A stretch of 64,000 bases of DNA, taken from Lama guanicoe. Lineage: Eukaryota. The number at the start of each line of letters is the position of its first letter. Position 1 is the stretch's first letter. The notes below the pieces were generated by a model. It was not told the origin of the DNA, searched no databases, and saw only the letters and a program-made list of their open reading frames with translations. Below are positions 28,050-53,848 of the stretch, piece by piece. The stretch covers positions 186,001 through 250,000 of the forward strand of contig MU053754.1 of NCBI GenBank assembly GCA_013239625.1, read 5' to 3'. Both the position numbers and the translations under genes were made by a program.

Positions 28050-29330
28050 GATGGATTATGGCATCCTTGAAGACTATGACAACCTCGTGGTCATATTACT
28101 TTCAGACTAGTAGGTCTTGGTCCTTGACAGTTTGCATTTGTAAGAGAGAGAGGAACGTCGTGAAGGAATTATGGAAACTTTTGCTTCAGCTCGTGAAGAA
28201 TACACCACTGTGGGAATTGCCTCCTCGTTGTAAACAATTGGAAAACTCGGAAGATGTGAAACCATGGTTTTCAGACTTTGGACAGTGGGCAACATGACTG
28301 TGATCCTTGCGATGAGGGCAGCTAACGAAGCAAGCAGTCAGTGGCCCTTGCAGCTTACTGTCCAAGCCAGTTTCTAGACCTTAGCTGAAGTAGGAGGAAG
28401 CTAAACTGGGCTCTGTGTGCTGAATCGAGGTCACAGGGACCTGAGTTCAGAGTGTGAGGAGGCTGAGGGTCCCTGGTTACACCAGGCAATGTTGTGGAGA
28501 GGAAGGGCCGGCACACAGAGGGAGCTCGGGAGACCTACGTCGGGGTCTCTGCCTCACTTTGGTGTCTACGCTGGGGGTAGAGAGCCAGCAGAACTCACCC
28601 AAGGATGGGAGCCGTTCACGTCCACACCAGCCAGCGTGGAGACACCTCATGGTACACAGAGCTTATCACCGTGAGCACCGACCAGAAAGCCAACGGGCGA
28701 GACAAAGCCTGGGAGAAAACATTCAGGAAACAAGGCTCTGACAAAGGACTGAGGCCCACAGTATACGAAGGGAACATGCTGCTCAGGGATAAAAAGACAC
28801 ACCGGGCGGCTTTTCCAAAGGACAGGGACTTGGACAGATGATTCTGTAGAAACACAAGTAAATGGCCAATAAACACACAAAAATCAGTTTAATCCCAACG
28901 GTATTTGTTAGGGGTCTGTGGGGAGATTCCAGTAGATACCAGACATGAACACTGAGCAGATTGACAACGTCCGATGCTCACAATGACGTGGGGCAACTGG
29001 AAAGTTGGTACGTATTTAGGGCAAGCGTGAAATGGCTGTGATTTTGGAAAGACTCCTGGACGTTGAGTCAAATACTAGATGACACAGTGACTTAGCCATC
29101 CCACTGCTCTTTACCCAAGATAATGAAGACTGATGTTCTGAAAGACTTGACAAGAAAATGAAGAGCAACTTAATGTATTTGAGGTTAAGAAAGAAGAAAA
29201 AAGGAGGAGGTGGTCCAAGTATTAATGGACAGAAGAAAGAACAAAGCACTCTTTTGCAGCCCTCGGCAGTGAAGATCATACAACAGTGATAATTCTATGG
29301 AAAATGTTGGAGGGAATGAAAGGGTCCTCA
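28050..29330 (+). mobile_element. Old L1M fragments (5'-region-like, then ORF2 end and 3'UTR)
   Basis: gacaaagcctgggagaaaacatt...ctgacaaaggactg...aaatggccaataaacaca...gatgacacagtgacttagccatcccactgct. Confidence 0.65.
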
Positions 29331-29659
29331 GCTAAGTGAGCATCCACCATAGGACCCGATTGTCTTGGAGCTCCAGAACAGACAAAGCCCTTATTTGTTG
29401 GAGGAAGTGCGAGCTCCGCGCGGCCTTGGTCTGGCAGGTGCGGAGCTGGACTGAAACTTGGCAGGAGGGGACCGCCTGGGAGGCCTGTGCTCGGGGTCCT
29501 GATGGGGTTTGGGCCCCGCACGTGTGCGCGCCTGTCTCCTCATCCCTGGCATCCTTGACACTGACGTATCTCGGGCATCGGACCATCCGATCGTCAGGCC
29601 ATCGGGGTGGTCTCCCCTGGCCTGGGGTGGTCACTGCTGGCTATCTGATCGCCAGGTTC

Positions 29660-31380
29660 TCGGGACAGACTCGGGTATCGACTGTGTCCCCTGGCCGGGC
29701 GCTCGCTGTCCTCTGGTCTCGATTGCGTCCCCTGGGCCCAGTCCCCTCCTGCTGGGGTCCCTCACTGACTCGGTTATCGACTCCTCTTCCTGGAGCAGCT
29801 TCACAGCGGCTTGTGCTCCCTGGAGTGACTGTGCCGTCAACTGTCTTCCCTGGACTGCGGGAATTACTTCCTGTCGCCTCTTCACTGACTGTTGACCTCG
29901 GACTGACACAGTCATTCATTATTTTCCCTGCTCTGATGGAACTGGTCCTCAGTGTTTTCCCTGGACTTTCTCCATCATTGACTTGTTTCCCTTGACTGAC
30001 TCGGTCGTTGACTTGTTTCCCTGGACTGACTTGGTCAACTCCTCATTACCCTGGACTACCTGAACTCTTTCTCTGGGCTGACTCAGTCGTCCACTCTCAA
30101 CCCTGGACTGAGTGATCAACTGTTTGCCTGGGATTGAGTTCTCATTGACTCGTTTCCCTAGACTGACTCGGTCATCAAAATGTTTACCTTCACTGACTTG
30201 GTCAACAATTAATTACCCTGGGCTACCTGAACTTGTTTCTTTTCTCTAGACTGACTCAGTCGTCCACTCTTTTCCCTGGACTGAGTGATCAACTGTTTCT
30301 CCTGGATTGACTTCTCATTAATTGTTTAGACTGGCGTGAGTGAGTCATTGACTCGTTTCCCTGGAGCAACTCGGTCATCAACTATTTTGCCTGGACCGAC
30401 TTGGTCATCGACTCGTTTCCCTGGAGCAACTCGGTCATCAACTATTTTGCCTGGACCGACTTGGTCATCGACTCGTTTCCCTGGAGTGACTTGGTCATCA
30501 ACTATTTTGCCTGGGTTGACTGGGTCGGTCACCAACTCGTTTCCCTGGACTGACTCGGTCATTGACTCGTTTCCCTGGGGCGACTCTGTCATCAACTATT
30601 TTGCCTGGACTGACTCAGTCGGTCATCGACTTGTTTCCCTGGAGCAACTCGGTCATCGACTTGTTTCCCTGGGGTAACTCGGTCATCGACTTGTTTACCT
30701 AGGCTGACTCGGTCATTGACTCGTTTCCCTGGACTGACTCGGTCATCAACTACATTGCCTGGACTGACTCAGTCGGTCATCGACTCGTTTCCCTGGAGTG
30801 ACTCGGTCATCACCTATTTTGCCTGGGTTGACTGGGTCGGTCATCAACTCGTTTCCCTGGACTGACTCAGTCGGTCATCGACTTGTTTCCCTGGAGCAAC
30901 TCGGTCATCGACTTGTTTCCCTGGGGTAACTCGGTCGTCGACTTGTTTACCTAGACTGACTCGGTCATTGACTAGTTTCCCTGGAGTAACTCGGTCATCA
31001 ACTCGTTTCCCTTGAGTGACTCGTTCATCAACTACTTTGCCTGGACTGACTCAGTCGGTCATCAACTCGTTTCCCTGGACTGACTCGGTCAACAACTCAT
31101 TACCCTGGACTACCTGAACTCGTTTCCCTGGGCCGACTAGTCCTTGACTGTTTTCCTTGGAGTGACTGGATCTTCATCTGTTTCTCCACAGACTGAGGGA
31201 ATCACTCATTGCCTGCCATCTCATCCTCAACTGTTTACCTTGGAGTGATTTGTTCATAGGCTGTTTTCCCTCAGCTTAGGAGATTCTGTCCTCTCCATCA
31301 TCAGCTGTTTTCCCTGTACTGACTCGGTCATCGACTATTTACGTCTCGAGTGACTGTCATCGACTGCTTTTCCTGGACTG
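29660..31380. repeat. 30-bp CpG-containing minisatellite, consensus ~CCTGGACTGACTCGGTCATCGACTCGTTTC; homogeneous core ~30340-31100
   Basis: 30361-30420 and 30421-30480 are identical 60-mers (a dimer of 30-bp variants); 34-bp variant units; degenerate flanks. Confidence 0.95.
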
Positions 31381-31395
31381 CGGCAGATGACGCGT

Positions 31396-31457
31396 CGCCA
31401 TCTTGGTTCCAGTTCTTAAAAGTGCGGTTCTTGGAAATTAAAAGTATATATTTGCAT
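31396..31457 (-). promoter_or_regulatory. Motif cluster: octamer (ATTTGCAT 31450-31457), TATATA (31445-31450) and YY1-type CAAGATGGCG (minus strand, 31405-31396)
   Basis: Motifs read directly; function is inferred only. Confidence 0.3.
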
Positions 31458-31888
31458 ATTCATGCGTGTGGAAGCACACCGGTGTACCTGAGTGTCCCTC
31501 GAGGAGAGCCACGCCTCTGTGCGTCCCAGTGGAGAGTGTGGGAGGGTCTCTCCATGCGTTAAACTCCCCGCGTGACAGGTGAGGCCTGGGCCCGAGCATC
31601 TTTCGTGTTTTCCTCAGTTTTTCGGTCAGTTTACTTGGATTTGTTCTCCGGGAAGGGTTTCCCTTTGCTTTCCTCAGACTTATTAAGAATTTAGTGTTAA
31701 GAATGTGGGCCCTCTCTTTGTTATGTTGCAAATATTTATCTTCACTTCGCCTGAATTCTTGTGACTTTATGGCTTTTTGTTTGTTTTTTTGGTTCTGGAA
31801 ATATGTATATTTTAAATTATAGAGACAAATTTATCAATCTTTGCGTCTGGATTTTGAATGACCTTTAGAAAACAGTACCGCACACCAA

Positions 31889-32305
31889 GTTTCTGGGAGA
31901 ATTAATTTACTTTCCCCCCAGAAGGTGTGTGTGGTTTCTGGGAGAATTAATTCACTTTCCCCCCAGAAGGTGTGTGTGGTTTCTGGGAGAATTAATTCAC
32001 TTTCCTCGAGAAGATGTGTGTGGTTTCTGGGAGAATTAATTCACTTTTCTTCAGAAGGTGTGTGTTGTTTCTGGGAGAATTAATTCACTTTTCCCCAGGT
32101 GTGTGTAGTTTGCGGGAGAATTAATTCTCTTTCCCCTCAGAAGGTGTGTTGTTTCTGGGGGGATTCGTTCACACCCCCTCCCCACCACCGCCCCCCAGAA
32201 GGTGTGTGTGGTTTCTGGGAGGATTAATTCGCTTTCCCCCAGAAGGCGGGTGTTGTTTCTGGGGGAAAGCGCGTCAACCAGATTCCCTTTCCCGCAGAAG
32301 GTGTG
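31889..32305. repeat. ~45-bp minisatellite, ~9 units (GTTTCTGGGAGAATTAATTCACTTTCCCCCAGAAGGTGTGTGTG)
   Basis: Unit starts at 31889, 31934, 31979, 32023, 32067, 32108, 32151, 32211 and 32255. Confidence 0.95.
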
Positions 32306-32690
32306 CGTCGTGTGGGCGCAGCGGCGAGCGCGCGCACGTGCGTTCGGACGCCGGCTTCAGGGGAAGCCGGTCCGTGCGCAGGAGTGAGACGCGCCTCCCG
32401 GCGCCGTTTTCCTCGTGGTGCCCGGGTGCCCGGCCTTCGCCGGGGTCGGGGAGGGGGGCGCGCTCCCCAGGGCTGCGGCCCCGTGTCCCTGTGTGTTTCC
32501 AGGCCCGCAGGCCTGTCCCCGGCCCCGGCGTGTGTCCAGGGCCCGCCGCGCGGCTCCGCGCAGCCGCGGTGTCCCGTGTGTGGAATCTGGGAGGACGGCG
32601 CCCGCTCGAGCGTCTGTGGCCGCCTCGGGGCCGGTTCTTCGCGCGAACCTCCCCGTCCGTTCATTTGACTCCCTGCGTCGGCTAAGACTT
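32265..32690. promoter_or_regulatory. Orphan CpG island
   Basis: Very GC- and CpG-dense ~420 bp between AT-rich flanks; E-box CACGTG at 32335-32340, a GC-box-like ggggagggggcg and GCGC runs. Confidence 0.7.
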
Positions 32691-33189
32691 TTCTTGTTAC
32701 TGCCGTAACGTTAATTTTATGTCACCCAGAATTGACAGCTTTATGATTTCAAGTCGTCCTATTCAAGGATTTTTTTTTCCATTTCTTCAATCTACTTTTC
32801 TTTCCGTTTTCTTTTTTTTTCCCCTTTTAATTTTTTTATTATAGATTTATTTGGCGTATTTTGTCTTAATTTGATTCCTGGGTATGTTAACTTCTTTGGT
32901 GCTATTGTATAGAGAGTTTTCCGTAATATTTACTACAGATGTTTATTTGGGGTGTATATTAATGCTTTCTGAGTGTTAATTTTTATGGTTAATTTACTCA
33001 ATTATTTTGTCGTTTGAATTAATGACATCATTGATTTTCTAAGGTTTTCCAGGTATCAGCTGCACAATTTGAATGTTTATTTTTCTAATTCTTATATCTC
33101 TAATTGGTTTATTTTGTCTCCTTCAATTAGCAAACATTTCCAGCATAATGTTGAATGTTTTGGGTCTTTTCTGTCATTTTCTTCTAACT

Positions 33190-33290
33190 CTTTTTTTTTT
33201 TTCAATTGAAATATCGTGCATTTTCAATATTGTGTTAGTTTCTGCTGTACAGCAATGTGATACGGATGTGTATATATGCACATGTTTCAG
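33190..33290 (-). mobile_element. Short L1 tail
   Basis: T-tract then caattgaaatatcg...tgtgttagtttctgctgtacagcaatgtga. Confidence 0.8.
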
Positions 33291-33419: not shown

Positions 33420-35010
33420 TTTTTTTCCTTGAAATACAGTTGATTTACAGTGTCATGTTAGCTTCAAATGTACAGCAAAGTGATTCAGTTATACGTGTGT
33501 ATGTCTATATATTCTTTTTCATATTCTCTTTTATTATAGGTTATTACAAAAAAATGAATGTAGTTCTCTGTGCTGTACAGACAGACCTTGTTGTTTATCT
33601 ATTATATATATATATATGTTAGTTAGTATCTGCTAATTTATCCCTTCCCACACCCTTGCCCCATTGGTAACCATAAGTTTGTTTTTTATGTCAGTGAGTC
33701 TGTTTCTGGATTGTAAATAAGTTCATTTGTGTTTTTTTTGTAAGATCCCACATATAAGTGATATCATATGGTATTTTTCTTTCTCTTTCTGGCTTACTTC
33801 ACTTAGAACGACCATCTCCAGGTCCATCCATGTTGCTGCAAATGACATGATTTTATTCCTTTTTATGGCTGAGTAGTATTCCACTCTATAAATATACCAC
33901 AACTTTATCCAGTCCTCTGTTGACGGACATTTAGGTTGTTTCCATGTCTTGGCTATTGTAAATAGTGCTGCTATGAACAGTGGGATGCAGGTGTCATTTT
34001 GAAGTAGGGTGAACATTGGGGTGAGTGTATCTTAGCTTACTTCACTTAGAACGACCATCTCCAGGTCCATCCATGTTGCTGCAAATGACATGATTTTATT
34101 CCTTTTTATGGCTGAGTAGTATTCCACTCTATAAATATACCACAACTTTATCCAGTCCTCTGTTGACGGACATTTAGGTTGTTTCCATGTCTTGGCTATT
34201 GTAAATAGTGCTGCTATGAACAGTGGGATGCAGGTGTCATTTTGAAGTAGGGTGAACATTGGGGTGAGTGTATCTTTTTCAATTAAGGTTCCTTCTGGAT
34301 ATATGCCCAGGAGTGGGATTCCTGAGTCATAGGGTAAGTCTATTTTTAGTCTTTTGTGGAATCTCCATACTGTTTTCCACAGTGGCTGCACCAAACTGCA
34401 TTCCCACCAGCAGTGGAGGAGGGTTCCCTTTTCTCCACAGCTTCTCCGTCATTTGTCGTATGTGGAGTTTTGAATGATGGCCATTCTGACTGGTGTGAGG
34501 TGATACCTCATTGTGGTTTTGATTTGCATTTCTCTGATAATTAGTGATACTGATCATTTTCTCATGTGCCTACTGATCATTTGTATTTCTTCCTTGGAGA
34601 ATTGCTTGTTCAGGTCTTCTGTCCACTTTTTTATTGGGTTGTTAGGTTTTTTTGTTACTGAGTTGTGTGAGCTATTTATATGTTCCGGACATTAAGCCCT
34701 CGTCACTTGCATTGTTTGCAGTTATTTTCTCCCATTCCATAGGTTGTCTTTTCATTTTATTTGTGTTTTCCTTTGCTGTGCAAAAGCTTGTAAGTTTAAT
34801 TAGGCCCCATTTGTTTATTTTTGCTTTTATTTCTATTGCCTGGGTAGGCTGACCTCAGAGAACATTGCTGTGATTTAAATCAGAGAATGTTTTGCCTGTG
34901 TTGTGGTCTAGATTTATGATGTCTTAAATTTAAGTCTTTAAACCATTTTGAGTTTATGTTTGTGTATGGTGTGAGGGAGTGTTCTAACTCCACTGATTTA
35001 CATACGGCTA
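33420..35010 (-). mobile_element. Truncated L1 (3'UTR plus ORF2 C-terminal region), frameshifted, with an internal 243-bp tandem duplication
   Basis: ORFs 33723-34016 and 34032-34394 translate to the L1 ORF2 C-terminus ([10 protein letters not shown]...PYD..IPLLGIYP...AALFTIAKTWKQPKCPS...WYIY..EYYSAIK). Confidence 0.95.
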
Positions 35011-36829: not shown

Positions 36830-37500
36830 TGAGAAGCCCGGGTAGAGGCTCGGGGGCGTCCGGGCGACTCCAGGGAGGCTTCACAGGGCCGCCTGGACTG
36901 TCCGCCCCCAGCAGGGTCACCTTGAGGGCCCGGGGCGGGAGCGTGTCAGGGTCCTTTCTGCAGGGCTCCCGGAGACCCACGCACAGGGGTCTGCCGTGTA
37001 GATCAGCCAGAGCCGGGGCCGCCGCCGCCTGGAGGGACCCGGTGGGGCGCCCTCTGCGGAGCAGTCCCCGCAGGGAGCTATCAGGTGTGACACTGATGTC
37101 ACAGGCGGGGCGAGACTGGACCAGCCTGAGCAGCAGCAGCGGCGGGACCCCTGGCCCAGGGCTTCGGGAGGGTGCCGAGGGCGAAGTGATGAGGGCCGTG
37201 TGTGCACGTGGCTCGTCGTGGGCAGGGCGTGTGGTCTTGAGTGAGGCAGGGAGGCCCTGATGCAAAGACAAAGGGCTGAGGCGGGGGACGCGGTGGCAGG
37301 GACGTGGGGATGTCACACACTAGCGTAAACCCAGAGGGGGCTTTGCGAGGGGAGGGCCTGACCGCAAGCCCCACTGACACGTGAGTCCAACAGCTTCTCT
37401 GGAACCAAGGACAGTGTGAGCGGGAACGTGAACATGGGTTTGTGGGCACGCACAGGATGTCTGTCGTTGCAGGGAGCTGCAGGAGGCAGCAGTGGGGCTC
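36830..37500. other. GC/CpG-rich patch (CpG-island-like)
   Basis: Abrupt GC-rich ~670 bp with many CpGs between AT-rich flanks. Confidence 0.6.
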
Positions 37501-53188: not shown

Positions 53189-53848
53189 TTTTTTTTTTTT
53201 TAATTGAAGCATAGTTGATTTACAGTATTGTGTCAGTTTCAGGTGTACAGCAAAGTGATTCGGTTATACATACATATATCTCTATTCTTTAATCATCTTT
53301 TTTTGTTTGTCTTAATGGAGGTACTGGGGATTGAACTGAGGACCTGGTGCATGCTAAGCATGCACTCTATCACTGAGCTACACCCCCACCTCTCATATAT
53401 CTCTATTCTTTTTCAGAGTCTTTTCCATTATAGTTTACTGTAAGATATTGAGTATAGTTCCCTGTGCTGTACAGTAAATCCTTGTTGCTTATCTATTTTA
53501 TATATAGTAATTTGTATTTGTTAATCCCAAACTCCTAATTTTTCACTCCCCCATTTTCCTTTCCCCTTTGGTAACCTTGTAAGTTTGTCTTCTATGTCTG
53601 TGAGCCTGTTTCTGTTTGGTACATAGATTCATTTGCATTATTTTTTAGATTCCACATATGAGTGATATCATATGATATTTGTCTTTCTCTTTCTGACTTA
53701 CTTCACTTAGCATGATAATCTCAAGGTCCATCCATGTTGCTGCAAAGGCAATGTTTTATTCTTTTTTATGGCCGAGTAGTATTCCGTCGTGTGTATATGT
53801 ACCATGTCTTCCTAACCCAGTCGTCTGTTGATGGGCACTTAGGTTGTC
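53189..53848 (-). mobile_element. L1 3' end interrupted by a SINE
   Basis: Standard antisense L1 3'UTR through ctgttgatgggcacttaggttg. Confidence 0.95.
53291..53393 (-). mobile_element. tRNA-Ala-derived SINE (Vic-1-like, camelid) with perfect 18-bp TSD
   Basis: Reverse complement ggggtgtagctcagtgatagagtgcatgcttagcatgcaccaggtcctcagttcaatccccagtacctcca plus an A-rich tail; TSD catatatctctattcttt at 53273-53290 and 53394-53411. Confidence 0.9.

Follow-up and report, generated by a model that had tools for sequence, protein, structure and literature searches.

How does a dense CpG island come to lie within the AT-rich remains of a LINE-1 (L1) open reading frame? The question is raised by positions 32305-32690 of a 64,000-nucleotide stretch of the Lama guanicoe contig MU053754.1 (positions 186,001 to 250,000; hereafter the window). 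An earlier note on this DNA had proposed that the segment is a CpG island born in place from antisense L1 ORF2. The features that enter the argument are the following, with columns referring to the L1 profile described below.

29350 to 31720, no strand: CpG-rich block, candidate promoter or first exon, with a tandem array, motif-like words and a donor word
31640 to 31926, minus strand: left flank, assigned to the same old L1 ORF2 as the right flank, columns 1475-1203; weak but colinear match
31889 to 32310, no strand: ~44-bp tandem repeat of nine units, the unit aligning to the same L1, columns ~1247-1203
32300 to 32495, no strand: left half of the island, candidate L1 (columns 998-1204) by length; no base-level signal
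32305 to 32690, no strand: CpG island core, 75% GC, 59 CpG, o/e 1.09; identical in the public runs X2 and X4
32496 to 32690, minus strand: right half of the island, GC-rewritten L1 ORF2 in the register of the right flank, columns 782-997
32691 to 33200, minus strand: right flank, AT-rich old L1 ORF2 with ordinary decay (reverse-transcriptase region, residues ~653-819)

The presence of a CpG island at this position was confirmed. Computed on the window sequence, 32305-32690 (386 bp) has a GC content of 0.749, 59 CpG and a CpG o/e of 1.09, compared with 44% GC and an o/e of 0.45 for the window as a whole, and it is the densest CpG peak of the window. By sequence it qualifies as a CpG island (length from 200 bp, GC >50%, CpG o/e >0.6), and it is among the three places in the window that pass the strict rule, which asks for GC 55% and o/e 0.65 over 500 bp. 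The right edge is sharp, with GC falling from 0.63 to 0.33 between adjacent 100-bp bins. The o/e of 1.09 gives no more than indirect support to a germline-unmethylated state of the island. Another GC-rich stretch that passes the strict rule, at 36830-37478, has a lower o/e (~0.6) and matches neither the L1 profile nor Pfam.

The locus was also found in public sequencing runs: 16 runs from three organisms contain 85% or more of the words sampled from 31200-33190. The 24 runs surveyed included no outgroup species, and no methylome or chromatin run was identified. The contigs of two of these runs, X2 and X4, both span the island and show no difference from the window over its letters, which excludes an assembly artefact. 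In the flank, too, the window and the two runs are separated by no more than 1-2 bases, so that the invariance of the island is uninformative on selection. Run X4, which contains 88% of the words of 31200-33190, holds 244 million letters of contigs, yet its depth over 32192-33189 is ~180, compared with 8 in run X2; its library may have been enriched or sorted, or made from RNA.

The L1 reference was assembled from DNA loci fetched with ORF2 proteins as guide; among the named ORF2 matches of highest identity to a young L1 of the window, two are from Camelus. Of 93 loci, 70 yielded segments of at least 350 bases, and the 25 that were left after removal of near-duplicates were made into a profile of 1,799 columns. 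The panel consists mostly of younger L1 families and therefore has less power on an old copy. During this collection, several public bacterial assemblies proved to contain small contigs of mammalian L1 (L001-L004, L085-L093), as host or reagent contamination.

Both flanks gave a significant colinear match to L1 ORF2. On the right, the minus strand of 32724-33200 corresponds to ORF2 residues ~653-819 in a protein HMM search (E 2.6e-5) and to profile columns 280-731 in nhmmer (E 2e-4), with 69% identity at conserved columns. On the left, 31640-31926 aligned to columns 1475-1203 as a weak, unanchored match that 0-2 of 60 shuffles reached in each of 12 settings; its identity to the profile is 58%, without GC bias. 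The assertion that ordinary L1 lies on both sides is thus borne out as antisense ORF2 in these two intervals. On the alignment evidence, the two flanks belong to a single old copy of L1 ORF2, in antisense, that is colinear across the island. In the stretch between them, with column 731 at 32728 and column 1204 at 32300, 428 window bases stand for 473 profile columns, so that the island replaces L1 sequence and adds none. Self-alignment of the window, in which kinship with younger L1 copies was sought, gave nothing for the island or the flanks. Elsewhere in the window, an exact 243-bp tandem duplication (33792-34276, 100% identity) lies in the 3' end of a young L1 and is either a recent duplication or an assembly artefact.

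Whether the island itself descends from L1 depends on which half is considered. Aligned alone against the profile, locally and unanchored, the whole island was not significant. Anchored on the right flank, it scored -0.9 bits, compared with -14.0±3.5 for shuffles. None of 500 dinucleotide shuffles and none of 54 rotations attained the score of the island, and among 200 block shuffles 1-2 did; in the same anchored test, z did not exceed 1.4 for any of 22 GC-rich stretches elsewhere in the window. With flank-tuned parameters the one-anchor test weakened to 7/250, and with two anchors 0-1 of 150 shuffles did as well in four settings. Shuffling the halves separately placed the signal in the right one (32496-32690), where the score was reached by 0 of 60 shuffles in all four parameter sets, as against 20-32 of 60 for 32300-32495. 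When slid along the profile, the right half scored best at its colinear start, with none of 146 other starts equal and the same result in all eight half-panels, whereas 43-44 of 146 other starts served the left half as well. By the sliding test, the base-level L1 signal is confined to ~32460-32690; base-level homology was thereby found for the right half and not for the left.

The nature of this signal deserves comment, since raw identity is 43% for the whole island (shuffles 40±3%) and 47% for the right half (shuffles 46±3%), and the transition share of the best alignment was no higher than in shuffles. The real sequence separates from its shuffles by fewer gapped positions (21 compared with ~50) and by conserved columns (1/200). 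The colinear register described in the earlier note was reproduced by the best alignment. Four words within the island had been offered there as L1 matches; those at 32494 (first of 1771 diagonals) and 32585 (third of 1776) fell at their colinear place, but those at 32374 and 32635 ranked 14th and 78th, each being the best of 13 local diagonals, which is chance level. Among the remaining A/T letters, the T share is 0.70 in both island halves and 0.69 in the flank, as expected from the antisense L1 skew; it is also 0.67 in the neighboring CpG-rich block, so that the skew lends weak support to an L1 origin. An internal duplication of the island halves was considered and rejected, with 245 of 300 shuffles scoring higher. 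Taken by its alignments, at least half of the island is L1 sequence rewritten by A/T-to-G/C changes. Birth in place from AT-rich L1 is supported for 32496-32690, by both shuffles and sliding, and by the length match between the flanks; the left half carries no signal.

It could be argued that the entire island is a GC-rich insertion, such as the 5' end of a retrocopy or a copied promoter, and that its likeness to L1 is fortuitous. The non-significant unanchored test, the raw identity equal to that of shuffles and the sharp right edge all agree with such an origin. The right half, however, prefers its colinear place over 146 others in 8/8 half-panels, and, given the flank spacing, an insertion would fit only together with a matched deletion. 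Moreover, two frames of the island, 32125-32682 on the plus strand and 32227-32721 on the minus strand, have no protein relative (for the latter, none among longer proteins), and neither a poly(A) nor a target duplication was noticed in the sequence. We consider an insertion of the whole island very unlikely.

Between the left flank and the island lies the ~44-bp tandem repeat, which is absent from the earlier note, and it raises the question whether the island, or its left part, is built from further units. One 18/20 match to the unit, at 32576-32595, suggests that this repeat, degenerate and GC-rewritten, might extend over the whole island. The island shows no periodicity, however (best lag identity 0.389, shuffles 0.380±0.012), its best local score is 28 against a shuffle mean of 26.8, and its fit as a whole to the unit was equaled by 13-18 of 200 shuffles, which is below the L1 fit. 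With no periodicity and with the right half landing on its colinear L1 position, a tandem extension is largely refuted and is extremely improbable as an origin of the whole island. The unit itself is a near-palindrome, and about six copies carry a splice-donor-like word on the plus strand.

A composite origin was taken more seriously, in which the right half is rewritten L1 and the left half is other DNA, either further tandem units or a small GC-rich insertion that replaced L1; this DNA may have started both the loss of methylation and the GC drive that followed. The lack of L1 signal in 32300-32495 argues for it, as do simulated L1 descendants with this GC bias, which kept their signal in 39-40 of 40 cases and fell as low as the real left half in 0-1 of 40 per setting. 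The simulation overstates power, however, because at this end of ORF2 even the left flank, which is free of bias, is matched poorly by the panel (58% identity). The interval 32311-32400 fits the 44-bp unit (8-11 of 200 shuffles as good) and may be one or two further GC-rewritten units, but 32400-32495 does not fit it (76-97 of 200), and a composite would require that the added DNA be balanced by a deletion of nearly equal length. All in all, a composite island is unlikely.

The direction of change was examined for the right half, where homology can be granted. It had been stated that mismatches between the island and L1 are mostly A/T to G/C; this is true, but by itself uninformative, as a shuffled island gives the same identity. 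Aligning DNA of 75% GC to an L1 of 38% GC forces an excess of A/T-to-G/C mismatches through composition, and the substitution counts are therefore meaningful only once homology is granted. Given homology, and measured against the L1 profile, 65 of 104 A/T sites of the right half have changed to G/C and 7 of 54 G/C sites to A/T, compared, for the right flank, with 34 of 235 and 40 of 94. On the same condition, A/T-to-G/C change amounts to 62% in the right half and 14% in the flank, the reverse change to 13% and 43%, and after correction for multiple hits the A/T-to-G/C value is 0.97 compared with 0.15, a roughly six-fold rise. Equilibrium GC is 0.83-0.87 at the peak and 0.25 in the flank. Conditional on homology, the locus thus shows what is expected of a GC-biased gene conversion (gBGC) tract, with A/T-to-G/C change raised and the reverse lowered.

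The bias may taper on both sides, with a gradient of ~150 bp on the left and a short shoulder on the right, where A/T-to-G/C change is 13/47 in 32691-32775. Within the tandem repeat, A/T-to-G/C changes number 17 and reverse changes 4 in the three units nearest the island, compared with 1 and 11 in the six far units; these counts are referenced to the majority of the far six units and are biased by that choice. The sign of the trend is independent of an outside reference, as the GC of the units rises toward the island in the nearest three. In a separate old L1 fragment on the plus strand (28684-29051), the changes are balanced (A/T-to-G/C 55/180, reverse 30/107; weak alignment), and the fragment is more GC-shifted than the flanks of the island.

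Loss of methylation lowers CpG decay and cannot raise the fixation of A/T-to-G/C changes. The several-fold rise in A/T-to-G/C fixation goes beyond methylation loss and calls for a fixation bias, and the known bias of this kind is GC-biased gene conversion. The ~six-fold rate is an average over the whole age of the repeat, which would be hard to fit with a short-lived PRDM9 hotspot and would fit a stable unmethylated site. We conclude that the L1 copy was probably rewritten in place by GC-biased gene conversion that acted over a long time at a spot unmethylated in the germline. An old L1 would have inserted in antisense and decayed normally, as seen in both flanks, after which ~400 bp of ORF2 would have been rewritten toward G/C, as seen in 32496-32690 and as assigned by length for the left half. 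The spot would have lost germline methylation, perhaps as the edge of the neighboring promoter-like block, and meiotic breaks would have been placed there, making it a long-lived PRDM9-independent hotspot. Mismatch repair would then have favored G/C, and the missing methylation would have preserved the new CpGs, so that the growing island kept itself unmethylated. We infer the steps after the rewriting from the pattern published for dog and placental mammals.

The possible seed of the unmethylated state is the CpG-rich block at 29.3-31.7 kb, ~850 bp from the island and separated from it by AT-rich L1. It contains a 30-bp tandem array (30148-31111, 31.6 copies, with higher-order periods of 154 and 167), CRE-, YY1- and octamer-like words at 31388-31457, and a strong splice-donor word at 31579. 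One array frame was searched and had no protein match, and no copy of the block was found elsewhere in the window. Judged by these elements, the block 29350-31720 looks like a promoter or a repeat-rich first exon of a non-coding RNA. With such a promoter-like block ~850 bp away, the label "orphan" that had been given to the island is doubtful.

The nearby block also favors selection for a promoter or enhancer, rather than conversion bias, as the force that fixed the G/C changes of a rewritten L1. The island is invariant among the window and two runs, and the available text of Kocher et al. (PMC11170920) links orphan islands to enhancer marks. Against selection, ~60% of the A/T sites changed in one direction, the bias reaches into the tandem units, and the flank, too, differs by only 1-2 bases, so that the invariance is uninformative. 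The E-box, GC-box and NRF1-like motifs that had been reported for the island did not withstand comparison with shuffles. The E-box at 32335 (shuffle P 0.06), the GGGGAGGGG word at 32448 (P 0.03) and TGCGCA at 32375 (P 0.09) are at chance level with 13 patterns tried, which leaves no motif significant, and neither a GGGCGG box nor a full NRF1 palindrome occurs within the island. Selection as the source of the changes is, therefore, highly improbable, and the island can be explained without a function.

Conversion at an unmethylated spot, the reading preferred here, has precedents. In dog, the available text of Berglund et al. (PMC4350167) reports a four-fold A/T-to-G/C excess in islands and many new non-genic islands. 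Those islands, as described there, resemble the present one in lying away from known exons, in retaining CpGs and in their A/T-to-G/C excess (four-fold there, ~six-fold here). The dog result, in the same text, is genome-wide, outgroup-polarized and from a lineage without PRDM9, whereas here one camelid locus is polarized against an L1 profile; the starting material also differs from that described for the dog islands, being the AT-rich ORF of a repeat. According to the available parts of Joseph et al. (PMC11161765), PRDM9-independent hotspots are active in 39 of 52 mammals, many of them with intact PRDM9. These default hotspots share with the locus a narrow equilibrium-GC peak at a CpG-rich mammalian site, but there they are defined by mouse or dog hotspot maps and sperm methylomes, and here the peak is read from the sequence. 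No camelid result was found in the available text of PMC4350167 or PMC11161765, including four text supplement files of the latter, whose datasets may name further species.

The available text of Kocher et al. names gBGC as one source of orphan CpG islands (PMC11170920), and that of a second study describes new sperm-hypomethylated regions as often arising beside or extending existing ones and as evolving faster (PMC5793779). As far as these texts go, the turnover of orphan islands and the birth of sperm-hypomethylated regions are alike to the present case in the gain of a small island. In contrast to a CpG-rich transposon promoter, the island here is rewritten ORF2. A literature search that covered few subscription papers found no study on long-lived default hotspots in camelids and nothing on de novo islands arising from LINE-1 by conversion with feedback. 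The process is already published, and the locus adds an example, not a mechanism. A far-reaching version would hold that a self-reinforcing PRDM9-independent camelid hotspot built a working regulatory island from AT-rich ORF2 without a CpG-rich seed, that its spread is datable by the GC gradient of the tandem repeat, and that the locus is a traceable case of a promoter or enhancer born by recombination alone; we think this quite unlikely.

Repeat copies have a known starting sequence, and such loci show how far conversion bias rewrites DNA, here across ~60% of A/T sites and nearly past recognition. The locus suggests that some "unique" CpG islands may be unrecognized old repeats and that default hotspots of long standing may be active in camelids.

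The coding and transcriptional setting of the island was surveyed as well. Pfam at its curated cut-off had no match for any of 229 open frames of at least 70 aa, out of a total of 240 from which the L1 and tandem frames already recognized were set aside; the window looks intergenic or intronic, though it may hold short exons. A scan with Rfam and for tRNA genes returned nothing at the island locus. Of the four runs compared over the locus, two, X17 and X18, are RNA or presumed RNA; holding small shares of the words, they gave only short, low-depth contigs of the flanks and none on the island, from which neither expression nor silence follows. Elsewhere in the window, a tRNA-like match at 53316-53387 lies just above the Rfam cut-off, was not called by ARAGORN and is probably the head of a tRNA-derived SINE.
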